A stretch of DNA of 64,000 nt from the IMG/VR virus record IMGVR_UViG_3300039136_000054; one strand, 5' to 3'. Positions within the stretch are counted from its first letter, which is position 1, and each line of letters opens with the position of its first letter. Under the pieces are notes generated by a model. The model did not search any database and was not told the DNA's origin. It was given only the letters and a program-made list of their open reading frames with translations. Origin of the DNA: an uncultured virus (IMG/VR IMGVR_UViG_3300039136_000054). Its lineage: Duplodnaviria > Heunggongvirae > Uroviricota > Caudoviricetes. A program made the translations under genes and the position numbers. Shown piece after piece: positions 7,373-30,319 of the stretch.

Positions 7373-10300
7373 TTAGTATGCTTTAATTATATATTTGACT
7401 TTGTGGAACTCCTCAATGACAGGAACCTGTCTATTGGGTTCCATAGTGACACTAGGAATTGGTTTCTTAATGTTTTGGTTGAGCTCAAATGTACCAGTAT
7501 TTAGTACAAGACCAACAGGTGCTGTATTACCATTGAATTGATTATTGTCAAAGGTAACGTTGAGTGTAGTACCAAAACTACCTAATCCTTCTTTAAAAGA
7601 ACCAGGACCATTCTGGTTGCCATAACTAAAGTCTTGAGTTGGATCTAAAACAGGAGTTAGACCCATCAAGTGGTTGTGAGAAGAGGTTGTAGTATCATTA
7701 TCTTCTAGAATTGCTGGTGGAGTATATGCTTCAACTCTAAATCTTCTTCCTTCAACGTCAATAGCAGCAGAAACAGCGGTTTGACCAGTACGCATCTGAC
7801 CATATACTCCTTCTGGATATCTCTGCATATTGGTGAGTGCAGTATCTAGAGATTCAACGTCACCAGTATCAAGCTGGGAAAAAGGTGATGTCCACCATAC
7901 TTTTGCAGACAATGTACGTGATACTTTTGCTGCAGGCTGTCCTTCTCCAAGAGGTGAAGCTGGCCAAGTGCTAACCCACTCAAGAATTTCTGCCTTGAAG
8001 TTAACTCCTTTATTGGTCAATAAAATTTTATCCCAAACAGTTTTGAAGTCAGTTCTCTGAACTACACGATCTAATTCTCCAATCCATAGGTTATACCAGT
8101 TTTCAGGTTCTTCTCGGAAGAGTTCGTCAGTACCGCCACCACCAATGAAGTCTTCATAAGGACCATCGCCTAGACCAGTTGTTCCAACTGGGGTTCTATT
8201 TTCAAAGGAACCAGGACTAGCCAGAACTTGAGTGTCCCATGGAATCAAACCTGTTGAACCAACATCACTAGTGATGGCACTAACATATAGGTGAGTATGT
8301 ACAGGAACATCAATCAGTTTCTCCTGCAACTGTCCAATCTGTGCAGTTACTGTGCCAGTAACAGCAAACTCAATGTCAGCTTGGATAGGTGCGTTGAACT
8401 GGGTCTTTACTGTACCAAAGTTAAAGAAGTTACTCTCATTACCTGTGTTACCAGTACCAATGATCTGCTCATAAGGATTATCACCAGCAACGTCTACCTT
8501 ATCAATGTACCACCATCCTCCAATGTTACCTGGTTCATTGATATTGTTTGTTGGCAAGAAAGCAGAAGATGCTCTATTTCCATCAACAACACCACAACCA
8601 GTGAGTTTCCTGTTTCTATAATCTGGAACATTGAAGTTAGCACCAGAACCACCATAAGTATATCCGATGACAGCAAATAGATCTCCATAAGAAGCTTTAG
8701 AAAGACTTCTGCCGTCACACTCAATGAAACCAGGATATCTAGAATCCAGGTCACCATCTATTGTACCATAATTTCCGTCTGGTTGCTTAAGAATGGAAAG
8801 AACTGTACCAATAGCAAGACCATCATCCTTCGCATTTCGTAGTTGGAGATCACCATTAGTGTCTTCGTATGTGTAAGAGTTCTTTCTACTATACCACGTT
8901 CCTTTTAATTGTGGAGCTGGTGGAGCAACAGCATATGTTGTAATACTCCAAGTAAATTGATTGCCGCTACCAGTACCAATAGTGATGGTGCTGCTCACAG
9001 TGCTTGCAAGACCACCAGAAGTTAGATAGAACTGGACACTACTGTTGGAGGGTGTAAATGTTCTTGGTCCCGCAACTGGTGTGTCAAAGTCAATAGAAAT
9101 CAGTACATTATTTGTACCTGTGATTGTAATATCTCTGTTGATACCAGAAACACTAACAACAGAACTAACATACTGTCTGTTGGGAGCTTTATTTGTAAGA
9201 CTTGCTGGTGCTGTGAAGTCAGCGTCAGTATCAGGACCAGAGTTTGTAACGATAGACCATGTAGGAACCTGTAGTGTACCAACTTTAATCGTAGTTTGTA
9301 CTGTACCACTGAATGTAGCACTAGATCTGTTATAGATCTGAATCCTATCTCCGTTGCTTACATCTGTAGGGAAGATTCCGACAGAACTCTCACTACCATC
9401 GTCATAGTAAATTTTAACTCTTGGTTCTGTACCATCTGTAGATACTAGTGTTACAGGTACAGATACACCAGCACCCAGTCCAGTGATTCCACCAACTGGT
9501 TTTATATCAGACGCAATCAGTGCATCTTCTTCTGCACTTGGTTCATCTGTAAATACGAATGATTGTGGTGTGGTTGATGGGAAACTACCAGTGGTAACAC
9601 CCCAACTAGATCCAGCAAGAGCATCACCAATGCTTAACAAGTTTGTGGTGGTAGTAGTTGATGTTACTGGTGTAGTTAATACCAACTGTAGATACTCACC
9701 ATTCTGAATGGTTGGATTGGTACTAGAATCAGCAAAAGTAACACCATCTAGAACACTATATCCTAGATCGTTTACAACGAAAGCATTACTAGAAGAGATA
9801 CCAATTCGAGCACCATTATCAGTGTTGACCACTGCCTGTGCATTTAGACCAGTGACTCTTAAGATCTCACTATAAACATCCACATCAACTGGCGCACCAG
9901 TAATCTCATTAAAATCAGGGAATGGTTCTGGAATGTTGGGTGGTTGAATTGCCGATGTGATCGTCCATCTCTCTGTTCTAGCACCAATAGTCAGGTCAGC
10001 AGTTCTAGTTAGACCACCAGTATCATTAGACTTGAGTCTTAACTGAAGTCTGTCACCATTTTGTACAAAGACATTACTACTTGGAATAACCCAGTTACCA
10101 AAATCTGCTTCACCTTGGTGTACTAACTGAATACGAACAGAATAGTCATCAATATTAGTTCCAAGATAAGATGATACTAGAGAAACACTAGCAGATGATC
10201 CAGGTGTTAGTCCAGCAACCTCAACAACATCTTCTTGTGCTCTAGTACCATCACCATAGACGTACATAACGTCTGGTGTTGCATCATCTAGTGGTGTAAA

Positions 10301-10480
10301 TGGGAATGGATCAGGAGCAAAGTCTTCTGGAACTGTAGAGATATACCAGATTGTTTGCTGATCACCAATCTGAACCGTTACACTCTGCGTTGTATCCCAC
10401 GCCGAAGGTGCTTTAAACTTCAGGCGAATAGTTTGCCCTTCGCTTACATATACTGGTGTAGTTCCGAACGAAAAGGTCAT
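7373..10480 (-). CDS. Tail fibre: N-terminal beta-sandwich repeats, collar domain, C-terminal tip
   Basis: Collar motif IGTVL...GFIECDGRSLSKASYGDLFAVIGYTYGG...FNVPDYR; HxH motifs; ends YIIKAY. Confidence 0.8.
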   Translation of the reverse strand: MTFSFGTTPVYVSEGQTIRLKFKAPSAWDTTQSVTVQIGDQQTIWYISTVPEDFAPDPFPFTPLDDATPDVMYVYGDGTRAQEDVVEVAGLTPGSSASVSLVSSYLGTNIDDYSVRIQLVHQGEADFGNWVIPSSNVFVQNGDRLQLRLKSNDTGGLTRTADLTIGARTERWTITSAIQPPNIPEPFPDFNEITGAPVDVDVYSEILRVTGLNAQAVVNTDNGARIGISSSNAFVVNDLGYSVLDGVTFADSSTNPTIQNGEYLQLVLTTPVTSTTTTTNLLSIGDALAGSSWGVTTGSFPSTTPQSFVFTDEPSAEEDALIASDIKPVGGITGLGAGVSVPVTLVSTDGTEPRVKIYYDDGSESSVGIFPTDVSNGDRIQIYNRSSATFSGTVQTTIKVGTLQVPTWSIVTNSGPDTDADFTAPASLTNKAPNRQYVSSVVSVSGINRDITITGTNNVLISIDFDTPVAGPRTFTPSNSSVQFYLTSGGLASTVSSTITIGTGSGNQFTWSITTYAVAPPAPQLKGTWYSRKNSYTYEDTNGDLQLRNAKDDGLAIGTVLSILKQPDGNYGTIDGDLDSRYPGFIECDGRSLSKASYGDLFAVIGYTYGGSGANFNVPDYRNRKLTGCGVVDGNRASSAFLPTNNINEPGNIGGWWYIDKVDVAGDNPYEQIIGTGNTGNESNFFNFGTVKTQFNAPIQADIEFAVTGTVTAQIGQLQEKLIDVPVHTHLYVSAITSDVGSTGLIPWDTQVLASPGSFENRTPVGTTGLGDGPYEDFIGGGGTDELFREEPENWYNLWIGELDRVVQRTDFKTVWDKILLTNKGVNFKAEILEWVSTWPASPLGEGQPAAKVSRTLSAKVWWTSPFSQLDTGDVESLDTALTNMQRYPEGVYGQMRTGQTAVSAAIDVEGRRFRVEAYTPPAILEDNDTTTSSHNHLMGLTPVLDPTQDFSYGNQNGPGSFKEGLGSFGTTLNVTFDNNQFNGNTAPVGLVLNTGTFELNQNIKKPIPSVTMEPNRQVPVIEEFHKVKYIIKAY

Positions 10481-10511
10481 TTAACGCAAGCAATGGTCAC
10501 GATTTCTGTAG

Positions 10512-10518
10512 TATTTAT
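10512..10518 (-). promoter_or_regulatory. T4-like late promoter
   Basis: ATAAATA about 30 nt upstream of the fibre start. Confidence 0.55.
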
Positions 10519-12092
10519 CAGATCTCTCTGACCTCAATGTATGTTCCACTGTTTTCAATTTCAACCTGAATAGGATAATCAGATTTGACCTCCACAGGTA
10601 TATCAATCTCCTCAATTAAAAGTTGATCAGTTGTTACTTCTACATCAGGAGTAATAACTGGTGATTCATCACGCAATTTATCTTCAGATGATGGAATCTG
10701 TATAGCATTGGGTGTTTGATCGATATTGATAGGTACAGTGACAACATCTACATCAGTCAATCCACCGCTACCAATTCCAGTTAGTGAGTATTGTATAGAA
10801 GCAGGTCCTCTATCATGATAAGTAACTAAATGAGTGTAAGAAGCATTTGCGGAATTTCCTGCTCCAAGATCAACAGGACTGACAGACGGAGTAGTTACAT
10901 TGCCGTCAAGATCTGTCTCCTGTATGTATAGCAAATATGATGCTGTTGCTCTAGACATCTCATGGGAGAGTGTTATGTTATCTCCATAAGATACTGCCAG
11001 AGGACCATTAAGAGAAACTGATGGTGGATCTATTACAGTAACGGTAACTGTTGCGCTAGCAGCTCCACCAGGACCATCGGCAGCCAAAGTATATGTGGTG
11101 GTAGTTGTTGGAGAAATAGTAGCTTGAGAAACTATATTAGTAGATCCAATTTCAGGACTGATGGTCACTGTGCTTACACTACCACTTACACTCCAACGTA
11201 ATATTGTGGTATCTAATCTAACAATCTCACTATCATCCACAGTAAATGAAATACTTGGTGGTGTATACACCGTGAGAGTTCTACTTACACTCGCAGATGT
11301 ATATCCATAATAGTTTCCAGTAAGTGTATATGTTGTTGTAGAACTAGGAGATACATTAACACTACCAGAACTAGCAACTGTGCCAATATTTGTAATTGAC
11401 TGTGATGTAGAATTAAATGTACTCCACGATAGCGATGCACTCTGCCCCTGAATGATTGAATCAGGACTCAAGCTTAACGAAACAGTTGGATTTGGGTATG
11501 TACAACTACCATCATTATTTGTAGCACTAGAATTGTAGTTACTAGCATTAGGATCAGTACATCCATAAACAATATAGGTACATCCAGTGCTTGGTTGATT
11601 TGCGTATGGATTGAAGTTGGTAGCATTAGGATCTTTGCATCCATAGACAGGAATTGGTGAATACCACGCAACACCTTCATAGATATATCCACTAGGTGTA
11701 TTACTGCTCGTTTTATACTTGTGGTCACCAGTGCTGGGATTATAAAATCTGTAAACTGGTTCACGATAAGCTCCGTTCTGTGTATATGCAACTCCAATAA
11801 TACCTTCTAATACGTAAGCACTACTAGGGAGACTAGACCCAAACTTAAATAAGTGATCTACAATCGAGTCGCTATAAAATCTGTAAATGTATCCTACTGA
11901 TTGACCATTTGGGATACCTGGTACGGTAGCAGACATGAACAGTTTCCATACATTACTAGCAACAAAGTTGTATGCACCCAAGCTCTCTCCACCAGGATTT
12001 GAGGTGTAAAACGTATCACCACCCCGCTGATTTGCTTGGTCATAAGGGTAGAAAAACGAATCGAAGGTGTGCAGGTTGCCCATTGCGCCCAT
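10518..12092 (-). CDS. Adhesin/tip paralogue D: DUF5648-like head, GCTD repeats, Ig-like repeats, conserved C-terminal module
   Basis: PVYRFYNPSTGDH...GYIYEGVAW repeats; YGCTDPNASNYN...DGSC; TTTYTL.A.GPGG; DQTPNAI...IQVEI tail. Confidence 0.7.
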   Translation of the reverse strand: MGAMGNLHTFDSFFYPYDQANQRGGDTFYTSNPGGESLGAYNFVASNVWKLFMSATVPGIPNGQSVGYIYRFYSDSIVDHLFKFGSSLPSSAYVLEGIIGVAYTQNGAYREPVYRFYNPSTGDHKYKTSSNTPSGYIYEGVAWYSPIPVYGCKDPNATNFNPYANQPSTGCTYIVYGCTDPNASNYNSSATNNDGSCTYPNPTVSLSLSPDSIIQGQSASLSWSTFNSTSQSITNIGTVASSGSVNVSPSSTTTYTLTGNYYGYTSASVSRTLTVYTPPSISFTVDDSEIVRLDTTILRWSVSGSVSTVTISPEIGSTNIVSQATISPTTTTTYTLAADGPGGAASATVTVTVIDPPSVSLNGPLAVSYGDNITLSHEMSRATASYLLYIQETDLDGNVTTPSVSPVDLGAGNSANASYTHLVTYHDRGPASIQYSLTGIGSGGLTDVDVVTVPINIDQTPNAIQIPSSEDKLRDESPVITPDVEVTTDQLLIEEIDIPVEVKSDYPIQVEIENSGTYIEVREI

Positions 12093-12094
12093 GG

Positions 12095-13774
12095 TTAGAT
12101 CTCCCTAATATCTTGGAATGTACCGCTATCATCTATCTCAACCTGAATAGGTTGATCTGCTTTGATCTCAACAGGAACATCAATATCATCGATCAAAATC
12201 TGTTGTGACGTTACTTCTGCATCAGGTGTGATAACTGGTTGCTCATCAAGAAGTTTATCTTCGGATGCAGGAATATCAATAGCATCAGGCGTTCTGTCAA
12301 CATTGATGAATGCATCAAAAGTAGCAGTATCGTTCAATCCCGCTTCACCAACGGCATACAACTGGAACTGAACAACATCTGGTCCAAAATCATCATAATC
12401 TGGAGAGAACAGTAAGTTTCCAGATGTATTTTGACCTGTCGGTAAATTTTCCACCAATGTCCAGTTTGGTTCAGGATTTCCCTGACTAACATACTTTCTC
12501 AACAACTGCAATGAAGTAACAGCATTATCTGCATTAAATGTCAACGTTATATCATCACCATAGTCAGTAGATAGTGGTCCAGTCAAGGAAACTTCAGGTG
12601 GATATACAACCTCAACAGTAAGTTGTTCAGTATCTGTACCACCAAGACCACTAGCAACAGCAGTATATGTAGTGTCTTGTGATGGTTGTATAAGTTGAGT
12701 GCCAGAAAGGTTGGTGCCACCAATACCAGGATTGATGCTCATTGTATCAGCATCGCCAGTAACACTCCACGTTAAAGTAGCAGTATCTCCACCAACAATT
12801 TGAGATTTGTCAACACTGAAACTAATTTGCGGTGGGATATGGACATCAATGGCAACACTCTTTGCAACCGTTCCACCAGGACCAGTAGCAGTTATTGTGT
12901 AAGTGATATCACCACCTGGTAGTATCGTAGCAGATCCAGATGTATTCACATTTCCAACGTCAGTAATGTTGACCGAATTCACAGTACCAGATACACTCCA
13001 GTTTAACTGAAAAGTATTGCCAAGAACCAATGTGCTGGGGCTAGCAGTAAACGTATCAATCGATGGTGGTGGATTTACATAAGAAAGAACTGCATATCCA
13101 TTACCAAAGTTTCCATAACCACTGTTAGTAATCCAACCAATATCTCCATTATTATACCAACCAGAGTTACCACCAATACCACCATATCCATTGCTAGTTT
13201 GAGCACCACCCAAACTTCCTGCACCACCACTAGTGGATCCTCCACCACCGCCACCACGGTGACCAGCAGGAGCAGATTGTCCAGTTCTCCACGAAGGTGA
13301 GCCGCTAGTTGCACCACCACCAATACCACGACCAGCAGTGTAATATCCACTGATACCAGTATCCTGACCGAATCTACCAGCACCGCCGCCACCACCTACC
13401 CAGGCAGTATATCTACCAAGCCAGCTATCGTATACAGCAGTAGCGCCGCCACCGCCTCCACCAGATCTATGTCCATTACCACCACCAGCGAGAGGGGAAG
13501 AACCACCACTGCCACCAGGATTCTGGGGTCCTACTCCATTGCCACCTTGCCCACCAATGTAAAATGTTAGATTGTATGAACCACTTCTTGGTGCGATAGT
13601 GAAGTTACCAGCTCTACCAAATCCACCTCTACTATGATTCCACAGACTACCATCAGAAGGCGATTTAGATCCACCACCACTACCAGCGGCAATAGTAAAG
13701 GTAACATTAGTGGCACCTGCTGGGACAAACCAAGTTACCTGCCCAGGACTATATCTACTCTGTGTTACTGTCAT
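12095..13774 (-). CDS. Adhesin/tip paralogue C: glycine-rich head, Ig-like repeats, conserved C-terminal module
   Basis: Poly-Gly head (GGQGG, GGGGGAT); shared C-terminal DRTPDAIDIP...IQVEIDD..IREI. Confidence 0.7.
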   Translation of the reverse strand: MTVTQSRYSPGQVTWFVPAGATNVTFTIAAGSGGGSKSPSDGSLWNHSRGGFGRAGNFTIAPRSGSYNLTFYIGGQGGNGVGPQNPGGSGGSSPLAGGGNGHRSGGGGGGATAVYDSWLGRYTAWVGGGGGAGRFGQDTGISGYYTAGRGIGGGATSGSPSWRTGQSAPAGHRGGGGGGSTSGGAGSLGGAQTSNGYGGIGGNSGWYNNGDIGWITNSGYGNFGNGYAVLSYVNPPPSIDTFTASPSTLVLGNTFQLNWSVSGTVNSVNITDVGNVNTSGSATILPGGDITYTITATGPGGTVAKSVAIDVHIPPQISFSVDKSQIVGGDTATLTWSVTGDADTMSINPGIGGTNLSGTQLIQPSQDTTYTAVASGLGGTDTEQLTVEVVYPPEVSLTGPLSTDYGDDITLTFNADNAVTSLQLLRKYVSQGNPEPNWTLVENLPTGQNTSGNLLFSPDYDDFGPDVVQFQLYAVGEAGLNDTATFDAFINVDRTPDAIDIPASEDKLLDEQPVITPDAEVTSQQILIDDIDVPVEIKADQPIQVEIDDSGTFQDIREI

Positions 13775-15120
13775 AGTTCTTGTACGTTATACCAAACGTT
13801 GGAATTATCAATCTCGACCTGAATTGGGTAATCAGCTTTTACCTCTACAGGAATATCTATATCCTCAATTACAATTTGTTCACTAACTACCTCAACATCA
13901 GGCGTAATAACTGGTTCTTCGTCACGTAATTTATCTTCTGTTGATGGAATATCAATAGCATTTGGAGTCTGATCAATATTAACAGGTACGTTAGCTTGTC
14001 TTATTGTTTGTAGTCCACCTTGCCCATTGGCAGTCATTGTGACCAGAATTGATTGTGGTCCTCTATTGCCCCACGTTGGTGTATATGTATATACACTACC
14101 ATCAGTTGTAGCAGTATCGGTGAAGAAATCATCACTGTTGTCTAGATCTCTCTGTGTTATTGACACATCTATACTCAATGCATTTACTGCTTCGTATGAA
14201 AAATCAACAGTAGATTGACCATAAGGTATTACAAGAGGACCAGTTAACTCTAGTTCTGGTGGTTGAATGACAGTTAAAGTAATCTGTTCAGTATCTGTAC
14301 CACCAGGTCCACTAGCGGTAAGAGTATAGGTAGTGTCTTGTGTTGGTGTTACTGCTTGAGCACCAGACAAATTAGTTGCACCAATACTAGGAGTAATAGT
14401 CATGGTAGAAGCATCACCAGTAGTGGTCCACCGTAATGTGGTGGTCTCTCCCTGAATAATCGGATTATTATCTAATGATACCGTAATTTGTGGTGGTATC
14501 AGTACCGTGACTGTACGCTGCGTTTGTCTACTTCCATTTGCCCACGTAACAGTATAGAAATATGTTGTCGTCTCTATTGGCGTAACAACAGCACTTCCAG
14601 ATGTATTTACAGCACCAGGCACAGGATCAACGGTAGCTTCTTGTATATACTGCGAATCGCTAGAAGACCAAGATAGCGTAGTGCTACTACCCAAAATAAT
14701 ACTGGATGGACTAGCGTCAAGATTTAGTATTGGATTGACAACTATGCAACTACCATCATCAAGATCTGCGCTAGGATTGTAGTTAATCGCGCCAGAATTA
14801 GTACAACCATAGATGGCAATTGGACCTTGAAACTGACTATTATTAATAAATTGTCCACCACTGACATATATGATCATGTCATTGAAGTCACCATCAGCGC
14901 CAGCTCCTTGTCTATCATCTAAACCTAAAGTCTGACTATTCAATCTTCTCATAGCAACATTGCCAGGACCACTACCATTAGCAGATAGATTAAATACCTG
15001 ATTCCACCCAACATTCGCAGTTCTACTACCACTATTGGGACCAATAGTTCCACCAGGCATACCATATAGGTAGTTACTATCGCCTGCGTTTCTAGACCAT
15101 GAAATACTAACCTGTGGCAT
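13771..15120 (-). CDS. Adhesin/tip paralogue B: putative Ca-binding lectin-like head, GCT repeat, Ig-like repeats, conserved C-terminal module
   Basis: LGLDDRQGAGADGDFNDMII (DxDFND motif); YGCTNSGAINYNP..DDGSC; shared tail. Confidence 0.7.
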   Translation of the reverse strand: MPQVSISWSRNAGDSNYLYGMPGGTIGPNSGSRTANVGWNQVFNLSANGSGPGNVAMRRLNSQTLGLDDRQGAGADGDFNDMIIYVSGGQFINNSQFQGPIAIYGCTNSGAINYNPSADLDDGSCIVVNPILNLDASPSSIILGSSTTLSWSSSDSQYIQEATVDPVPGAVNTSGSAVVTPIETTTYFYTVTWANGSRQTQRTVTVLIPPQITVSLDNNPIIQGETTTLRWTTTGDASTMTITPSIGATNLSGAQAVTPTQDTTYTLTASGPGGTDTEQITLTVIQPPELELTGPLVIPYGQSTVDFSYEAVNALSIDVSITQRDLDNSDDFFTDTATTDGSVYTYTPTWGNRGPQSILVTMTANGQGGLQTIRQANVPVNIDQTPNAIDIPSTEDKLRDEEPVITPDVEVVSEQIVIEDIDIPVEVKADYPIQVEIDNSNVWYNVQEL

Positions 15121-16631
15121 TAGATCTCCCTCACATTATACCAAACGTCATCATTCTCGATTTCAACTTGAATAGGATAATCAGACTTAATCTCAACAGG
15201 GATGTCAATATCCTCAACTACAATCTGTTCTGTCGTAACCTCAACGTTAGGCGTGACAACAGGTTCTTCATCTCTCAACTTATCTTCAGTTGAGGGAATA
15301 TCAATAGCATTAGGAGTCTGGTCAATATTGACAGGAATTACTTCTACTTCTTGTGCTAGCAGTCCACCATATCCATTGGCAGTGAAAGTAATTGACACCG
15401 ACGATGGTCCAAAGTTATCATATACAGGAGTGAATTCAAAATCAGTGATGTTAACCAAATCCCCAGTGCTACCTGGGATTATTACTGGATCTGTCACAGC
15501 TTCTGTGCTACCGTCAGTATTAACCTGCGAATAGACATAACTAACACCACCTGGTGCATTTGTTGCTTCTATACTAAAAGGCATTGGATCTTCATATCCA
15601 ACCACAATTGGACCAGAAACACTCAATGTTGGTGGTGGCAATACTGTAACAACCGCAGTGTCACTACCTGTTCCACCAGGACCAGTAGCAGTTCCTGTAT
15701 AAACTATGGTTGATGTTGGTGTAATTACTTGCTGACCAACAAGGTTAGAGTTTCCAATTCCGTTGTCAATCGTCATATTATTAGCATCACCAGTAACATT
15801 CCATCTCAAGGTAGTGCTCTCTCCCAAGACAATAATAGGATCGTCAACAGTCATATTAACGTTCGGGGGAATCAATACAGTAACTGTGACAGAATCAGTT
15901 GTTGAATATGCTGGATTAATTGCCTGAACTGTATATGTAGTCGTAGAGGCTGGAGAGACACTAAATGATCCGCTTGTGCTTACATTTCCAATACCAGGCT
16001 GCACAGTAACTGAATTAATATCTCCACTTGAGCTCCACGATAATGTACTGCTATTCCCCAAAACAATACTAGTTGGGCTTGCACTTATGCTAGCAGAAGG
16101 GCGGTCATATGTAGTTTGAGAGATGTAGATTGCCCCATTGTCACCCCTTCTTCTATTGCCATTACCACCTTGTGTACCACCTTGCCCGATCGTCCAATAT
16201 ACTCTTTGACCAGCGATAGAACCATTCGATCCTCGATAGTATGTTGAGCGAGAAGCACCACCACCGCCACCACCACCAGTTAAACTAGGCGATCTCCACT
16301 GTCCCGCACCACCAGATCCATATGGTCCATAACCAGATGCAGCACGTTGATACTGACCGCCAGAATAGTTGATCTGACCATTCCTACCATAACGGTAGTT
16401 TCCATATCCACCATAACCACCACGATTTAGTTCTCCATGTCTACCACCCTGCGACCACAATCCTGTGGTATTCAGTCTAGTGTCTTGACCATTGTTAGGA
16501 GATCTACCAAAACCAACATTAGGGCGAGCACCACCGCCACCACCAGCAACAGTAATGTAATTAACTTGCTTTACATCTTGTCTTAAAACCTGACTGCTAC
16601 TATACGTGTAGGTATTGTTATACGTAGCCAT
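15120..16631 (-). CDS. Adhesin/tip paralogue A: glycine-rich head, Ig-like repeats, conserved C-terminal module
   Basis: Gly/Arg/Tyr-rich head; shared tail DQTPNAIDIPSTEDKLRDEEPV...VREI. Confidence 0.7.
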   Translation of the reverse strand: MATYNNTYTYSSSQVLRQDVKQVNYITVAGGGGGARPNVGFGRSPNNGQDTRLNTTGLWSQGGRHGELNRGGYGGYGNYRYGRNGQINYSGGQYQRAASGYGPYGSGGAGQWRSPSLTGGGGGGGASRSTYYRGSNGSIAGQRVYWTIGQGGTQGGNGNRRRGDNGAIYISQTTYDRPSASISASPTSIVLGNSSTLSWSSSGDINSVTVQPGIGNVSTSGSFSVSPASTTTYTVQAINPAYSTTDSVTVTVLIPPNVNMTVDDPIIVLGESTTLRWNVTGDANNMTIDNGIGNSNLVGQQVITPTSTIVYTGTATGPGGTGSDTAVVTVLPPPTLSVSGPIVVGYEDPMPFSIEATNAPGGVSYVYSQVNTDGSTEAVTDPVIIPGSTGDLVNITDFEFTPVYDNFGPSSVSITFTANGYGGLLAQEVEVIPVNIDQTPNAIDIPSTEDKLRDEEPVVTPNVEVTTEQIVVEDIDIPVEIKSDYPIQVEIENDDVWYNVREI

Positions 16632-18911: not shown

Positions 18912-21900
18912 TCAGACCTCGATTAAGAACCATCCGTCTTTTCCTGTTGGAACTGCAGTGTTACCGTCTGGAGTAGATGTACCAGCGAATACTAGTGCGA
19001 ATCCAGCGTTAGGTGTTTGAACAACTAGTTCACCACCATCATAACCATTTAGGTCAGCAGTATTACCTGTCAATAGAGTGGTTCCTGTGTTGTCAGTTGC
19101 ATTTTGTACTCTAATCGTAGATGGTGCTCTTACAATCAGCGAGAGGTTGTAAGTTAGAAGACCACCGATGTCCACGATACGAATCATGTCACCAATTAGA
19201 GCGTTTGTAGGTAGTTTAACAACGGTATTTTGAGTAACATTGAGGAAGTAGTTAACGTTTGCTTCTGCCTCAACTACAAAGTTGTCGCTGTACTCCCACT
19301 TACGTCCACCAGTTTGTGAGAAGTAGTTGCTAATGCCAGCGATATTGACAGCACCATCATTCTCAACCGAGAAGATCTTATTGCCACCAGAGTTGACTGT
19401 TAGATCACCACCATTGAGAGTCAGATCACCACCAGCAACAATGCTACCACCAAATGTTGATGTTCCTGTTCCTAGAGCAGAGAACGAACCGTAGGTAGTA
19501 AAGTCACCCGAAGAGTTGTTGAACTGAAGACGTGGTGTAGTGCCATCAGGTCCGAAGATATTGAAGTCACCACCATAGATCTCCAGATCACCAGTTGCGG
19601 TGTCAACACGGAGTGTGTTTCTTTCAGCGATGTTCTCGGATCCACCGTTAGTCAGTGTGAAGAACTGGGTCAGTTCTACAACAGATCCTCTTACCTTCAG
19701 AGTATCATTGGTGGTTAGTTTACCTTGAGTTACGGTATCACCAGTTCCACCATCAACAACGAACTTGTTAAATCCTTGTCCGACAGATAGTGTGTTACCT
19801 ACAAATGTGTTACCAGTTGTAGACTCAACCTTAAATACCTCGACTTCAGGATCACCACCGTCTGTGACAACCAGGGACTGAATGTCGGTAGATACCAATT
19901 CAGAAACCTTGACGATTTCAGAATTAGATAGGAGCAGGTAATCACTGGTGGTTAGAACACCACCAAATTCTGCAACACCGATTCTAACATCAACACTGTC
20001 TGCGAGGAGACCAGCGCCGCTGTTGATCTTAAGTTCAGCAGCCGCTACCTGATCAGACCAGATGTAAGTTCCTGTGGAAACATACTGACTTGTCTTGATT
20101 TGAAGGGAAGAAGCAGTTCCAGTGATGCCACCTTGAATTGGCCACGTACCATTCAGACCAACAATGTTAGTGCCAGAGATTGTAATAAACTCACCGTAAT
20201 CAGCACCAACACTATCGTTAGTTTCGCTGTTCCAGTTGATTGTAACGATGTCAGTGCCATCAGCAACAACCGTTAGGATGGAACTATCATTGATAGCGAC
20301 ACTAGATGTAGGATCTAGAGTTCCGCTATTATCAAAGTCAAATCCAGTGATGAACGAAGCATTGATCTGCTTGTCAAACTTGGAGATGATTGCATTATCT
20401 GGGTGATCAGTTCTAGCAGTTGTGCCATCTTTAGCACGAGTAACCAGAATTCTGAAACCAAGAGGATCAGCAGGGTCGGAGATATTAGTTAGACCAGCAA
20501 CCTCAAGAAGTTCGCTGTACTCTTCACCAACAGGAGAAATGTTTGTGTCCTGTCCATCTACTGCTGTGTCTCTTTCAATGAACAGTAGATCACCGATCTG
20601 GAAGTCATTGACAGAAGGTCTGGTGACTGGTAGCAAGTATACGTTACCAGAATCATTAGTTCCATTAACTCTGAAAGATAGATCAACACCGTTGGAGTTA
20701 CCCAGTTTCGATGCCTCAATGGTCAACAGATCGTTGTCAGAGTAACCAGAACCAGGAGATACTAGAGTGATGTCTGCTGTGCCGTCAGATAGAACCTGAA
20801 CAGTGAACAGAGCACCGCTACCTGTGCCACCAGTTGGTTGGATGAACGAGTATGTTTCGTTAGCAACCCATGTAGCACTCGACTCTGGAGTGATGCTATC
20901 GATTGCAGCAATCTGACCACCAGATAGGAGGTACTGATCACCACCCCAAGGTCCAACACCAGCAGTATCAATTTGTCTGCCAAGCTGGATGTACTTGAGG
21001 AACGTGATGTTAGGATTGTCAAGAGATCCAACGATGTGCTCTGATGCAGAAGTGCCGAATCTTGCTCTCTCAATCTCAATAATACCAGCATTTAGACCAC
21101 CAGATAGTTTGATGGTAGAGTTAGATGTGGTGCTACCTTGTACAAGTAGAGAGTTTCTAATCGTTGTGCGACCACCAAGTGCTGCAATGTCAACTGTAGA
21201 AGAGTTAGCACCGAGGGTAACTCTCGTAGTGTTCTGACCATCACCAACGTTCAATGTTGCTGCGGTGGTGAAGATTCTGGTTGCAGATGTGCCAGCAAAA
21301 GCACCGACTTCCAGAGTACCATTCAGTTTGGTCTGATATGTACCGATCAGAGTTTGAGAGTTCAGGTTAGGAGCAGCACCACCAATCTTGATAGAGCAAG
21401 CAGCACCTACTACATCTTCTACCGATGCAATGTCAACAAATGCGTTAGTAGAACGCTTATGTACCTCAAAGGTAGTTACACCAGCGTTAGCACCAATTCT
21501 CAAGGTATGAGAAGAAGTATCAGCAACATTGTTACCGATGTTGATAAGCTGGTCACTAGTGGTGTTGTTGCCGATGTTGAACGATTCTGCGTCACTAGCA
21601 GCAATCAGGAAGTCAACGTTCTCGGTCAGGAATCTGAATGTTTCAGCAGTAGAGTTGATGTCTCCACCGTCAACACTCAAGTCATCCTGTGCAGTGATGT
21701 TACCAGAGAATCTAGAATCACCGATTACAACGAAGTTTCTATCGAGTTCGGTAGATGCATCTAGACCGATGCTGGTGTTAACACCAACGCGACCACCTAC
21801 TCTGTAAGTAGAGGACTGATCGTTAGCTGCTAGATCAGAAGTTGCAACACGAAGTGTAGCGAAGTCATCAGGATCAGCACTGTCACCACCAACCAAGAAT

Positions 21901-24900
21901 GCGTTAGTGAGTGCGAAGTATGTCTTACCGACAGAAGGTTCTGCTAGATAGTTGTTCGCAGTTACTGCACCAACGTTGTCATAAGTTACGAGAGACTTAC
22001 CACTGATGAATGCGTTACCAACAACATCCAAGTTAGATCTTGGATCTGTTTCAGCAGTTACGGAAGCGGTGAGTACACCTTCCTTCGCCATTCTGCCGAC
22101 AGTGTTGATACCCAGTCTGTAATCACCAGGTACTTCAGTTCTCGTGCGAAGTGTTTCAGCACCAATGACTCCAGTCTCCTTCCATCTGGACTTGGAGATT
22201 TCCATCTTCGCACCAGGACCTTCATCAGCCCAGGTGTAGACGTTCTGTGCAATCTCATTGAAGATTCTGATCTTACAGGTGTTACCCGAAGCAGAGAATC
22301 CACCAGCAAGAACTGCCCAAGAACCATTGAAGAAGGAGTTACTGAAGTTGGAGATGCGTAGTTTTTCACCAACTCTAATACCCAGACCAGCGTTATCCAG
22401 ACCAGCAGCCCAGGTAATTGTAAGTTCTGAAGTATTGTTAGATGCAATGGTAAAGATCTGTAGATCACCAATTTCAGTGAAGAAGTTGGAGTATACCCAA
22501 CCCATCGAACCGCTACTACCAACTTCTAGACCCTTGTAGAGTACATCACCAGAAGAAGGTAGGATAGAAGAACCATAACTGATGTTCTGTAGGGTGTAGA
22601 AGGCAGTGCCACCTTGACCATCAGCCAGAAGACCAGTGTTGTCAGGAGAAGTGTTAGAAGGAAGACCACCAGTGTAGTGAGTTCTCCAGCTGTAACCCTG
22701 ACCAGGATCGTTTACGTTACCGCGTGGGTTAAACTTATAAACTGCAGCATCAATCTGGTTCTTGGTGATAATAACATCACCATCTCTAGTGTCTCTGAAG
22801 GAGGATCTATCTTGTGTAGGATCGTCACCAGTGTCAACCAGAGACAGGATGCGAAGTGCATCACCTTCTAGAGGATCGACGTTGATAGTAACAGGATTGT
22901 TCAGGAAGGTGTCACCCTCGATGGTTACCTTGTCATTGAAGGTAACTGCTGTATCGAAGGTAGTGACGAGTGCGCCGATTCCTTCATCGTCGTCACCACT
23001 GTCCTCAAGAACTGCCTGCTCAAGGAACGTCTCTTCGCCTGTAATAGCGTTGATCTTACGGTTACCGATATAGAGGTCACCGTTGGAGTTTAGACCCGTG
23101 TAGAAGACGATACCAGCGTCCTCACGCTTCGCTTGTGCGTAGAAGTCCTGCTTATCAGATAGAACGACTTCCTGACGCAGTGGGAAACCAGTTGAGTAGT
23201 TACCAGGACCGAAACCAAGGTATTCAAACGTATGGTTACCAGATCTTGCAATCGAAGGACGACGCAGTTCAGTGTAGAATCTTCTGTCTAGAGGATATAC
23301 AGAGTCACCAGAGATAGGAATCTGTCTGTTCTCGGAACCTACAGATGCGTTACCTTCTTGTGCTTGAATTCTGTTATCCAGAATCACACTGTTCAGATCG
23401 CTTGTGGTATTGGTATAATCAAAACCAGAGAAAGGTAGCGTTCTAGTCAAATCAATGATCGCTTCCTTCGTTTCACTGAACTTGTAGTCGTTAAGAGTAA
23501 CAAGACCGTGAACGTAGTTGTCAGCAGCCGCAGCAGATGCTGGGGGATCAAGAACCGTTGTATCTCTAGATCCAGTGTCAACATTGATCTGGAACCACAG
23601 TGGGTCATTCTTGTAGTCTAGAGGATACAGGTTAGAAATAGGTTGGGAGAACCTGTAGTAGTGGAAGTTAGTTCCAACACCAGCACCCAGAGGATATGGA
23701 GAGATGTTACCACGGACACATGTCAGATAGTAGATACCATCTTGCTGTAGAGGAATCTGCTCTTGGATAGTCTCAACATCAAAGATGTAGAAGGTATCAT
23801 CAATTTCAGGTACATCCTCTAGTGTAGTGACAGTGTATGTGTCGCCACCAGGTGTAGTAATCTTGTCACCAGGTACTACAGTGTAAACATTAGCGCCCTC
23901 GATTCTGTAGAGATAGTTCTTTCTATCAGATCTAGAGAGTTGTGTTGGATATGCATCAGGATATCCAGAAAGGTTGAAGAACGTACCGTTATTCTGAACA
24001 AATGTAGTGTCACTGTTAACAGAGTAATCTAGTTTTCCAGTGATGTTCTTAAGGATAACAAATGCGGTAGCATCTGCTTGATAATATCCGTGAACGAAAG
24101 CAGATCCAGAGCAGTAACCAGTCCAGCTAACGTAGTTAGAGTCATCGCTGTTGTAGATGCTAGTTTGAATACCTGCACCCTGTGGAGTTCCAATCTCAAC
24201 AACAGTGAAGATTTCATTCTTCAGTTGCTGGTTGATGATCGTATGATCAAATACAGTCAACTCAAGTCTATCCACCAGGGTTCCTGTACCTTGAGGATCA
24301 ACCTCAATGGTTCTAGCAGACTGGATAGTAGTTGCAATCTTGGACTCAAACTCGATCTGTAGAGGATTTTCGTATGGATCATAGAATCCACCACTAACAT
24401 CGACACTAGCGGCATCTAGGTCCGCCAGGGAGAGACCCAGCTGTTCACCAGCACGAGCAGGGTTAAAGAACTGTGCAACGTCTGGAGCGCCGTTGCTGAA
24501 GGGTTCTAGGTAGAACTTCTGTGGCTTCAGGCGTCTTCTGTCGTCAGTTCTTGTCTTAATGACATAACCATTGAGAGGTTCACGAACTGTCTGCAGATAT
24601 TGTGGCAGAACATAACGCAAACGATAGATTCTGTCGAGAGCAGGTCTTTCATCCAGAATTCTTTCGTACCAAGTATCTGGGGTAAACAGGTTACCAGTTC
24701 CATCTACAAAGTCGGACTGGTGGAATCTAGTGAGGATAGCATTAGGATCAAGACCACCTGCAGATTCAGGTTTGACATTCAAGTACCATCTTTGGAAGTC
24801 AACTGGGTCGTACTTGAGGGGGGAAGTCTTTTTATTGCCATAGACGATAAAGTCGCTTCCGCTACCTGAAGTAAATATGACAGCATTTGTGCCAGCTTGA

Positions 24901-27900
24901 GCATCCGATTGTGTGGTATGAACACTAAACTTCGTTTTGGTGATAAAACGTGGGTAGTAATACACATCTGTTGCCACGTCGCCAGCGCCCGAAATAGTTG
25001 GGAGTTGAGAACTTGCATCGCCAGATGTAGCGAAGAAAATTGTTTGTGCAGGGACATTTGGTACAGGAACGTCGAATACGTGTGGAATATCCGTTTCGAT
25101 GTAGATACCAGAGACATTACAAACATATCTGTGCAGATCATAACTTTCGTCAAGAACCTGTTGTTGGACTAGTAGTTCAACATCTGGGCTCATGCTCTCC
25201 GTTTCAGAAGAGTAAATGTAAATACCAGCAGCAGCGTTTTCTTTAGTAGCAGCAAGCATCAACTTGGTGCCTGCAGTATTATCAAACTCTGAAGTATTAT
25301 TAAACGAATTTGGATATGTATCTCTGCCAGGAGCAATTACATAGTATGGTCTGTTAGTCTCAAAACCACGAGGTAGTCTGACTAGGCGCTTATCAACGCC
25401 AGCATTAGTTGCTCTTGGAACAAGTCTTACAGGGGTTCCAGTTTGGAATCCATGAGGGTCGGTCTGTCCTAGACCAGTATCAATCGTGAATACAGTTGCT
25501 CTACCAATCAGAGCCGAAGACTCAATGATAGGTTCAACTCTAGTTACCTGATTAGCATTGCCATTGAGGACCAGATTGACAACATCGAAGTATCCTTCGA
25601 TCGCAGACGCAATGTTAGTACACTCGGGATACTCATCATCTTGAGTGATCGAGAGGTCAATGACTCTTTGAGCACCAGAGTAGATATTAGAATTCTCGAA
25701 GTACAACCATGCAGTTGTGCTATCTTGCTGTGGTTGATATGTCTGACCAGTGTTAGGATCAGTCAACACGATTGTGGTCGCATTAACAATCTGACCAATA
25801 ATTAGTGGACTACCACCGAGCAAGTTAGTACCCAGAGGAACAGCACCTTCGTTTAGAAGACCATTAGTGAAGTCAGATTCAGCATACTCATTGACCTGCA
25901 TACCAGGTACAAGACCAGAAGTGTCGCCAACAACAACGTTGGTGCTGCTGGTAGACGTGGTGCAGTTCTTGATTAGCAGTGTACCATTACGGATTACACC
26001 GAAGATCAATCTCTTCAGATAGTCATAAGCAATCAGAGTCTCGGTAAGTTCTCCATCAACATAGGATACGTTACCGCCAGAGAGGTAAGACTCTGCAGCA
26101 TATACAGTGTTAATGTTACCACCAACGCGAAGGTCTTTTACGACTGCATCAGTGATAAATCCGATGTCTCTTTCACACTTGGTGATAGTCAGAGACTGAT
26201 TAGTCAGCAGTGCTGGATAGAGATCAGTGATATATCCATAAGTTTCTTGTGCCAGATACTCTCTGTTCTTCTCGATGAGGTTAGCAGCATCATATGCCTT
26301 GTTAAAGTCATCGTTACCATCACCATTTAGGTCGAACAATACGTTCAGGTTAGTAGGTGTTAAGGTAGACAGAGATGCTCTGTAAGTAGTGATACCAGAT
26401 GGTTCTAGTGTGCCATGGTAAGTTTGCTTACCACCTACACCACCAGAAGGTAGTTTGACATACAGTCTATCATCTTGCTTGGCACCAATTCTGTATCCAT
26501 CGATGGATGCAGCAGGACGTGTTGCTGGATCTACGTTGATGTCACCTGCTAGGTATAGCTTGGTGTCGTTAGCAACATCGTTGGATGCTTCAATGTCAAG
26601 GGTGTAATAAGCATTCTTCTTGATTGCTTCCTGATTTGTATTAACAACCTTGGGAGGAATAATAGCATCGATGTAACCACCCTTGTCCTGGTTGAATGCA
26701 AATCCTTTGAAACCAATAGAGTGGAGCGAGGTGTTACCGAAGTTGGAGTTCGAGTTGGTGATAGACATGTCACCACCACTTTCCATCAGGAAGTGATCGT
26801 GGAAACCAACAGCGAAGACCGAGACGCACTGGATGAAGGAGTCATCAGAAGCACGAATGTGGAAGTTTCTCCAGTCATCCTTCCAATATGCATCACCCTT
26901 GGTGTGATAAGGAATCGTAGCGAAAGCATCAGTTAGGGATGCCTGATTCCAAGTGTTAGTAAATCTGTCGTAGCGGATGAATGCACGGTCGTCCTTCTGG
27001 AGCGAAACACCCGTGTACTGTGCAACAACCATCGACTTGAATCCAGTTGCCTTGGATCCATCTGCCCACATACCACACTGACCCCAGGTGGATCTGATGG
27101 AGCAGTTAAAGACGTATGGAGATGCAGACTCAACGGAGTCAATCTCTGCCTGAATCACCGCACTGGTGCCGAGACCATTAGCAGTGGTGTAAGTTGTACC
27201 AGAAACAAGTCCTAGACCAGCAGCGGTGATAGGAATGATGTATTCAAAAACCTTGGGGTTGTTGTCATCAATGCTGTCAACCTTAAATGTACCGTTGACT
27301 TCATCAGATAGACCACTGTTGATAACAGCGATGTACTGACCTTTGAAGTAACCGTGCTCAATCTTGGTGGTGACAGTTAGTCTAGAGGTTGATGTACCAG
27401 GGATATCAACAACTTTGATCTGCTCAACAGTTCTAGTATCAGATAGAGGACCAACAATTCTGGTTTCTTGTACCAGTGCTTCTAGTTCACCATCGTCGAT
27501 TGTAGGTTGGAACTGTGCAAATGCTCTACCAACTTTCTCATAGTATCTGTCTAGTTCATCATTACCCGCATAGGTCATGATGCAGATCTTGTGGTGAGAA
27601 TACTCGGGGATCTTTAGATCAGTAGAGTTCTGTTTATAGTAAACCTTACCTACCTTGTCTGCCTGATCATAAAGTGGAGAGTTCTCGGAGAGATCACCAT
27701 CCTTGATAGTGAACTGCCACAGATAGCAACCACCAGTTAGCTTAAAGATACCAGTTCTGTCTACATCTCCATCTACAGGATCGGGAACATACAGAGGTCT
27801 GATGATAGTACGACGGAGGTCATAACCGATCAGAGAACAACCTCTAGGAACAATACAACCGCCCTCGGTAGAGTTGAACTTGTAAAGTACGTTGTCGGGG

Positions 27901-30275: not shown

Positions 30276-30311
30276 AATTAACCCAATCCTGCTGGACAAT
30301 TTCTTCTGGAT

Positions 30312-30319
30312 TATTTATA
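30312..30319 (-). promoter_or_regulatory. T4-like late promoter
   Basis: Perfect TATAAATA upstream of the giant structural gene. Confidence 0.75.

Follow-up and report, generated by a model that had tools for sequence, protein, structure and literature searches.

A conserved orphan half-repeat at the start of a cyanophage tail fibre and a candidate docking module on the variable adhesin-like proteins encoded beside it

Introduction

Surface proteins joined through a conserved module or an incomplete domain are known from several systems. These include: the branched multi-receptor-binding-protein (RBP) systems with conserved docking modules, such as gp66/gp63.1 of Escherichia coli phage G7C, the tailspikes of CBA120 and the adaptors of K1-5/SP6; the chaperone-usher pili, in which the following subunit donates a strand to an incomplete immunoglobulin (Ig)-like pilin; and T4 Hoc, which binds the capsid through its C-terminal domain and points its Ig-like domains outward. 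Here we describe a tail-fibre locus that shares features with each of these. It lies in IMG/VR record IMGVR_UViG_3300039136_000054, an uncultured virus of the Caudoviricetes; the whole stretch analysed, 64,000 nucleotides (nt), is termed the window below. Its 1035-amino-acid (aa) tail fibre begins with the second half of a repeat, and four paralogous proteins encoded upstream end in a common module that may dock onto this half-repeat.

Judged by its genes, the window comes from a T4-like cyanomyovirus and the locus is its tail module. T4-like cyanophages of the sea destroy a large fraction of oceanic Synechococcus and Prochlorococcus. To our knowledge, little has been described of how their fibre and 'virion structural' proteins assemble, or of which ones recognise the host. 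The gene families considered here and their order are already public as 'virion structural protein', the RefSeq product name of relatives (phrog_2155/T4-GC 737-739), and 'short tail fiber'; the public records of these relatives assign no function to the C-terminal module or the half-repeat. Among literature listings and abstract openings we found no description of the half-repeat, of the tail module or of a half-domain joint in phage fibres or RBPs. According to an excerpt of the review PMC2984593, cyanomyoviruses lack recognisable wac, g10, g11, g12, g34, g35 and g37.

Results

The tail fibre begins with half of a repeat

The fibre gene (7373..10480; this and all genes below lie on the minus strand) encodes a protein that matches phrog_4924 over its full length (expectation value (E) 0, 1137.6 bits; aa 1-1035 on profile positions 1-1022 of 1022). 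The initial annotation had described four repeats preceded by the second half of one, and profile comparison bears this out. The fibre and 120 homologues were aligned and sliced into the repeat units of that annotation, and the slices were compared by hhalign: R1 (aa 51-176, 9953..10330) matches R3 (aa 298-412, 9245..9589) at 98.6% (E 8.6e-16), and R2 (aa 177-297, 9590..9952) matches R4 (aa 413-515, 8936..9244) at 96.1%. The repeats are further defined by an AlphaFold2 (AF2) model and a hidden Markov model (HMM) scan. The first 50 residues, which we term N0 (10331..10480), align only to the final 40-48 columns of R1, R2 and R3 (86-92%). When compared with a merged repeat profile built from 120 repeat slices, N0 aa 8-49 occupy columns 77-119 of 119 at 95.5% (E 1.6e-8), which is well above chance. 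The ungapped alignment of N0 with R1 claimed at the outset also holds: 10 of its 42 positions are identical, and its BLOSUM62 score of 49 was reached by none of 1000 shuffles. Self-BLASTP of fibre aa 1-560 did not find the repeats, and profiles are thus needed to see them.

In the AF2 monomer, R1-R4 are predicted as confident β-sandwich beads with a predicted local distance difference test score (pLDDT) of ~90, whereas N0 is a single hairpin with pLDDT blocks of 52-75. Foldseek with the fibre model likewise points to a chain of Ig-like beads. One and the same chain hence holds an incomplete copy of the fold, N0, alongside the complete copies R1-R4. A TAA codon stands directly before the fibre ATG, and the fibre start is common to 120/120 homologues (within 0-5 residues); this shows the N-terminal truncation to be genuine and conserved, and the same TAA rules out that the open reading frame (ORF) extends further upstream. 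N0 is also the most conserved segment of fibre aa 1-560, with a mean identity of 0.73 as against 0.50-0.61 elsewhere. It is a true, conserved orphan half-domain.

Beyond the repeats lies a body with a phage tail collar domain (PF07484; aa 583-624, 8609..8734; E 3.3e-13, 49.8 bits against a cutoff of 24). Its C-terminal part (aa ~700-1000, window ~7480-8380) displays HxH motifs ('VHTHLY', 'SHNHLMG') that are invariant across the alignment and recall the HxH by which T4 fibre proteins bind metal. By analogy with other tail fibres, we presume that the protein forms a trimer. A phmmer comparison of the fibre with all PDB chain sequences, T4 gp12 included, gave 0 matches at E <= 0.01, and a search of the ESM Atlas with fibre aa 1-176 returned only unnamed clusters. 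Relatives are 32-48% identical at the protein level, the fibre of the nearest cultured one being 48% identical, and megablast of the region against phage records found no match.

Four upstream paralogues share an acidic C-terminal module

The ORF list agrees with the gene layout first described, with four paralogues (10518..16631) upstream of the fibre. The span originally given to the locus, 8930..16631, fits it except at the left edge: position 8930 marks the end of R4, and the fibre gene ends at 7373. The four proteins, of 503, 449, 559 and 524 aa, are named here by their lengths: p503 (15120..16631), with a Gly-rich N-terminal head and an Ig-like stalk (phrog_2155, E 2.4e-132); p449 (13771..15120), with a head that has a weak DUF4114-like match, followed by Ig-like beads (from its ORF and the Pfam and PHROG scans); p559 (12095..13774), with a Gly-rich head and an Ig-like stalk (phrog_2155, E 2.1e-169); and p524 (10518..12092), directly upstream of the fibre, with a head matching PF18885 (DUF5648; E 1.8e-20, 74 bits against a cutoff of 25), two Cys motifs and an Ig-like stalk. 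The matches of all four to phrog_2155 (E 1e-133 to 2.1e-169) cover the C-terminal part of that profile and reach position 1192 of 1193. The AF2 model of p449 has a mean pLDDT of 86.2, with aa 1-381 confident (~90), and by Foldseek resembles bead-chain adhesins (GhpA, SiiE, RTX adhesin). Comparison of the paralogues with PDB sequences gave only generic Ig matches and no solved structure related by sequence. The best explanation is that they are putative virion proteins of the bead-chain (Ig-like) adhesin type with differing N-terminal heads. The Cys motif, 'YGC(T/K)D..A.N(F/Y)N..A...(D)GSC.Y', lies between head and stalk, twice in p524 (aa ~150-200) and once in p449 (aa ~103-125), and is also seen in relatives such as those at loci L060 and L047.

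A common C-terminal module, as proposed in the initial annotation, is present in all four paralogues; its 68 aa, which we term Cmod, are 60-82% identical among them as against 29-42% for the remaining protein. On HMM and profile-search evidence it forms the last 68 aa of p503 (15123..15326, net charge -15; HMM E 6.3e-38), p449 (aa 382-449, 13774..13977, -15), p559 (12098..12301, -15; E 5.6e-35) and p524 (10521..10724, -13; E 3.8e-37). Cmod is the most conserved paralogue segment (0.69 versus 0.26-0.54). In the AF2 monomer of p449 its blocks have a low pLDDT of 44-72 and are mostly coil. Several alternative proteins in this locus accordingly carry one conserved attachment-like module.

Among 120 relatives of 246-786 aa, Cmod stands at the exact C-terminus in 119. 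A profile search over 1.84 billion representative proteins returned 192 carriers at E <= 0.001; 142 of the 150 carriers listed were examined, the other eight being already in the set of 120. A single terminal copy is found in 127 of the 142 and two or three copies in 11; each of the remaining four has one Cmod ending 7-26 residues before the protein end, and two of these are fragments of <90 aa. Cmod did not match families of chaperone or peptidase type in Pfam, PHROG or PDB, and had no usable match in the ESM Atlas. Partner searches covered the ORFs of the 64-kb window: five HMMs, built from the N-half, the C-half and the whole of the repeat and from N0 and Cmod, gave nothing significant there outside the fibre and the four paralogues.

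The module and the half-repeat occur together

The same gene order is found in the Synechococcus phages S-CAM3, S-PM2, Syn1, S-RIM32, S-RIM44 and S-H9-2, with six paralogues in S-CAM3 and three in each of the other five. In all six of these cultured phages, which belong to five genera, 3-6 Cmod ORFs precede an N0 fibre. The conserved synteny of the six phages and the window comprises the array upstream of the fibre, and a 2-oxoglutarate (2OG)-Fe(II) oxygenase and a chaperone-like gene downstream of it.

A wider comparison took in 80 viral loci. A recognisable N0 heads the fibre ORF in 77, of which 76 have upstream DNA; in at least two of the three others the fibre match begins within a protein that lies at the end of the locus. 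One or more Cmod ORFs lie upstream of N0 in 76/76 loci, ending within 100 nt of it in 68/76 (median 40). Where 9 kb or more of upstream DNA is available (32 loci), Cmod occurs once (3 loci), twice (5), three times (13), four times (6) or five times (5). The paralogue number varies from 1 to 6 among relatives, a variation that the initial annotation had suggested looking for. Every one of the 26 phage records with a Cmod tblastn match also has N0, which occurs once per record.

Does the module dock onto the half-repeat?

We regard Cmod as fairly likely to be a common docking module. N0 is its most likely socket, and docking of the two is plausible, at a little less than an even chance. Both segments combine the highest conservation in their proteins (for N0, within aa 1-560) with the lowest model confidence, which favours docking, as do their close linkage and the greater likeness of Cmods than of stalks within a genome. 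Docked in this way, Cmod and N0 would fold only together, so that any paralogue could be mounted at the N-terminal end of the fibre, giving a virion with mixed heads, and a trimeric fibre would offer up to three sockets. The initial annotation went further and proposed one β-sandwich split between genes. In the fullest form of this idea, Cmod as the N-half and N0 as the C-half of an Ig-like sandwich would rebuild a fifth repeat in trans, and 1-6 interchangeable, or fused multi-headed, adhesins could be mounted on each fibre chain. This step we infer more weakly than the binding itself, and consider it rather unlikely.

Size and charge are compatible with a split sandwich. Cmod (68 aa) and N0 (50 aa) together come to about one repeat (103-126 aa). 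The net charge of Cmod is -13 to -15 and that of the repeat N-halves -12, -8, -8 and -2; N0 has a net charge of 0 and the repeat C-halves +2, -2, +1 and 0. As far as sequence goes, the pair would hence parallel a whole repeat with an acidic N-half and a neutral C-half. In hhalign comparisons Cmod matches R4 at 7.2% (score 19.9, reached by 1/286 column shuffles) and R3 at 1.0% (16/286 column shuffles). These weak matches fall in the repeat N-half and in the correct order: a 'TPDxFxF'-like linker with R3 and a strand block with R4.

Co-folding of a paralogue C-terminus with the fibre N-terminus had been put forward as a check; carried out with the p449 module as the one representative of the four, it gave weak support. 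Residues 378-449 of p449 were co-folded with fibre aa 1-56, each with its own alignment, and gave ipSAE (interaction prediction score from aligned errors) values of 0.36, 0.38 and 0.35, as against 0.00 for the best of three controls, a result graded 'weak support'. The runs share at least 88% of contacts, with a partner pLDDT of at least 67. N0 has a pLDDT of 68 with Cmod and 37 with an unrelated chain; Cmod has 60-61 with N0 and 39-41 with unrelated partners. The mark was reached by 116/157 solved complexes and 2/215 mismatched pairs, counts that are only approximate with custom alignments. A score of <=0.60 was given by only 18/157 solved complexes and by both of the mismatches that passed, and for a pair without high prior likelihood a pass in this range is graded as wrong more often than not.

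Several results weigh against docking of Cmod onto N0 or against the split sandwich. The co-fold pass lies in this weak band and consists of scores without interface geometry. The sequence likeness first claimed between Cmod and the missing first half does not stand out from chance: its 32-residue alignment (6/32 identical, score 29) was reached by 115/1000 shuffles. HHalign, which had been named as the comparison able to refute the idea, found no significant homology between Cmod and the repeats; Cmod scored 0.18% (E 0.34) with the merged repeat profile, and the repeat N-half HMM matched Cmod only at E 1.6. Homology of Cmod to the repeat N-half is, on these sequence comparisons, not established. 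A fused single-gene version, which the initial annotation had suggested looking for among relatives, did not appear in the 142 Cmod proteins, the 120 fibre homologues or the 76 loci, and a search of proteins of 1813-5000 aa for Cmod joined to N0 or a repeat gave no match, this search being itself weak evidence. The correlation of distance matrices is unspecific, with r(N0,Cmod) 0.70 versus r(repeats,Cmod) 0.75, and the partner search for Cmod and N0 took in 64 kb of the genome. In 8/76 loci another gene or domain stands between Cmod and N0: an inserted 153-aa gene, an inserted ~200-aa gene or a Gly-rich extension. Finally, Cmod is found inside longer fused proteins and is thus not strictly a chain end: in such fusions it is internal and followed by a Gly-rich 'G-x-x-GGNS'-type linker and the next head, and at L047, L051, L060 and L068 a Gly-rich domain follows it.

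The fusions join paralogue to paralogue in one ORF of 1000-1800 aa, with three units at L070, L072 and L074 and two at L071, L073, L075 and L076; fused multi-unit proteins also include P0146 and P0241-P0250. At L047, L051, L060 and L068 the sole Cmod protein upstream of the fibre has ~280 residues after Cmod, and by eye this extension is the same kind of Gly-rich domain as the heads of p559 and p503. The ~200-aa insert (L069:1375-2001, L077:5003-5599) is 2OG-Fe(II) oxygenase-like by its sequence, as judged without a family-library scan; the 153-aa insert (L032:9505-9963, L062:7350-7808) is without assigned function.

Once the repeats are taken into account, a partial correlation r(N0,Cmod given repeats) of 0.33 remains (0/2000 permutations); r(repeats,Cmod given N0) is 0.48. 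Over 57 pairs, the mutual information of N0 and Cmod columns reflects clade structure only. In a clade of S-PM2, Syn1, S-RIM32 and S-H9-2 (L002, L083, L084, L086), N0 '...YEAP' goes with Cmod '...QVRFD', and in the others '...FKAP' goes with '...QVEID'; all Cmods of that clade also have a 4-5-residue insertion. The two pairings may represent a compensating charge swap. As they reflect a single lineage event, they are only a lead.

Taken together, the proposal of split-domain docking stands in its orphan half-domain, its docking-like common module and its variable copy number, with the co-fold adding weak support; it does not stand in the homology of the two halves or in the fused form.

Gene neighbourhood and promoter-like motifs

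On the minus strand the genes are ordered as follows: a 3795-aa giant protein, a 451-aa gp12-like collar-domain protein, a 305-aa collar protein, the four paralogues and the fibre. 3' of the fibre come a 2OG-Fe(II) oxygenase and then a 316-aa ORF, which sits where relatives have a gene annotated 'tail assembly chaperone'. The giant protein (18912-30299) is named 'short tail fiber protein' in relatives. Its N-terminal third has at least five copies of a ~110-aa unit (spacing by eye), each with a 'KCKRD(I/L)G...GGN.YTR.' motif. Genes for 2OG-Fe(II) oxygenases stand next to the fibre and the chaperone-like gene in cultured relatives as well as in the window, and the question arises whether the fibre might be hydroxylated.

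A 37-nt spacer (10481..10517) separates the stop codon of p524 from the fibre start. All three of its frames are closed, which rules out a read-through or frameshift fusion of p524 and the fibre. At 10519-10512, the late-promoter-like motif GATAAATA fits the late-promoter motif of S-PM2, given as NATAAATA in an excerpt of PMC2984593. ATAAATA, the core of the T4/S-PM2 late-promoter motif, is found upstream of the fibre in 34/50 distinct relatives, as against 80/5000 random windows. The minus strand from 5000 to 31000 contains only three copies of it (30318-30312, 10518-10512 and 6717-6711), which stand just upstream of the giant protein, the fibre and the 316-aa chaperone-like gene, respectively. 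Its restriction to these three places suggests three late transcription units, in which case the four paralogues would be co-transcribed with the giant, gp12-like and collar proteins.

Discussion

Competing explanations

The most serious competitor to docking on N0 is that Cmod is a shared anchor whose socket lies elsewhere. The giant protein of 3795 aa, the collar protein, the baseplate and the sheath are candidates, as is the capsid, to which T4 Hoc binds with a like polarity. In that case N0 would be the peptide by which the fibre attaches to the baseplate, or a conserved remnant with another partner. We hold this to be a real, if tentative, possibility. It gains from the arrangement of the paralogues, which share one block behind the ATAAATA at 30318 with the giant, gp12-like and collar proteins while the fibre has a motif of its own, and from the placement of the paralogue family under 'head and packaging' by PHROGs. 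It would also accommodate a Cmod that is without significant homology to the repeat N-half and works at internal positions, and a mirror-tree signal that is not specific to N0. However, the co-fold passed its controls, if weakly (0.36 vs 0.00), and Cmod and N0 are adjacent and strictly co-occurring. Moreover, N0 is an incomplete fold needing cover, and within the 64 kb no ORF outside the fibre significantly matches the repeat N-half.

Improbable, in our view, is that Cmod serves self-association, folding or processing, be it as a tag for oligomerisation, as an element akin to an intramolecular chaperone, or as a cleavage site or linker between adhesin units that once formed a single polyprotein. 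The two or three units in series with Cmod between them (11/142 representatives and L070-L076) would suit such a role, as would the extreme acidity of Cmod and the lack of a predicted fold for it alone. Against this, 127/142 representatives have a single terminal copy, its confidence rises with N0 and not with unrelated chains, and no chaperone- or peptidase-type match was obtained in Pfam, PHROG or PDB. Known C-terminal intramolecular chaperone domains are far longer, and the 68 aa of Cmod fall well below their size.

In a further scenario the two elements have no functional link: N0 is a decayed repeat, and the conservation of Cmod has other causes, for instance paralogue recombination. This would fit the chance-level sequence likeness first claimed and a within-genome homogenisation of Cmod that could be gene conversion (the nearest neighbour is from the same genome for 22/54 Cmods vs 10/54 stalks). 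It is nevertheless very improbable, as decay would not leave N0 as the best-conserved 50-residue stretch within the N-terminal 560 aa of the fibre in homologues down to ~50% identity, nor keep it at the exact N-terminus in 120/120 homologues.

What docking of Cmod onto N0 would offer is an assembly rule, by which an acidic tail plugs into the orphan half-repeat of the fibre, for a module that is conserved across at least five cyanomyovirus genera and in which the number of heads is variable. If true, it would explain how adhesin heads are swapped, added or fused without changing the remaining tail, and would provide a natural half-domain connector for protein engineering. If false, the conserved half-repeat and the conserved tail would each still need a partner.

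Comparison with known systems

Like the branched RBP systems, the locus has several proteins of receptor-binding type with one conserved attachment module, encoded side by side. It differs from them in that the module is C-terminal, 68 aa long and acidic, the proteins are predicted Ig-bead chains rather than trimeric spikes, and the candidate socket is half of an Ig-like repeat. A T4 gp10-like branching domain was not found in the seven module proteins by Pfam and PHROG scans. With donor-strand complementation the locus shares an incomplete Ig-like fold for which another chain would, as proposed, supply the missing segment; here, however, a half-domain of about four strands is missing rather than one strand, and the case is proposed from sequence and models. 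The donor-strand fusion of CfaB (3f85) comes at rank 49 of the fibre Foldseek list, as a generic Ig-bead match.

T4 Hoc has the same polarity, with N-terminal Ig-like domains directed outward and a conserved C-terminal anchor, but no sequence relation to it was seen, and the window genes belong to a tail-fibre module and have lectin-like or Gly-rich heads. T4 gp12 shares the collar domain with the window fibre, which RefSeq names after the short tail fibre. Beyond that domain no sequence relation between the two was seen, E. coli phages not being among the full-length matches, and we know of no 515-aa Ig-like repeat region in T4 gp12. The closest counterpart is the module of S-PM2 and S-CAM3: phrog_2155/T4-GC 737-739 (S-PM2 p223-225, S-CAM3 gp229-234) are the same families as the window paralogues, T4-GC 740/phrog_4924 'short tail fiber' (S-PM2 p226) is the family of the window fibre, and the gene order and flanking genes are equal. 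The window thereby adds a new member with four paralogues, which is the same in kind as these known modules.

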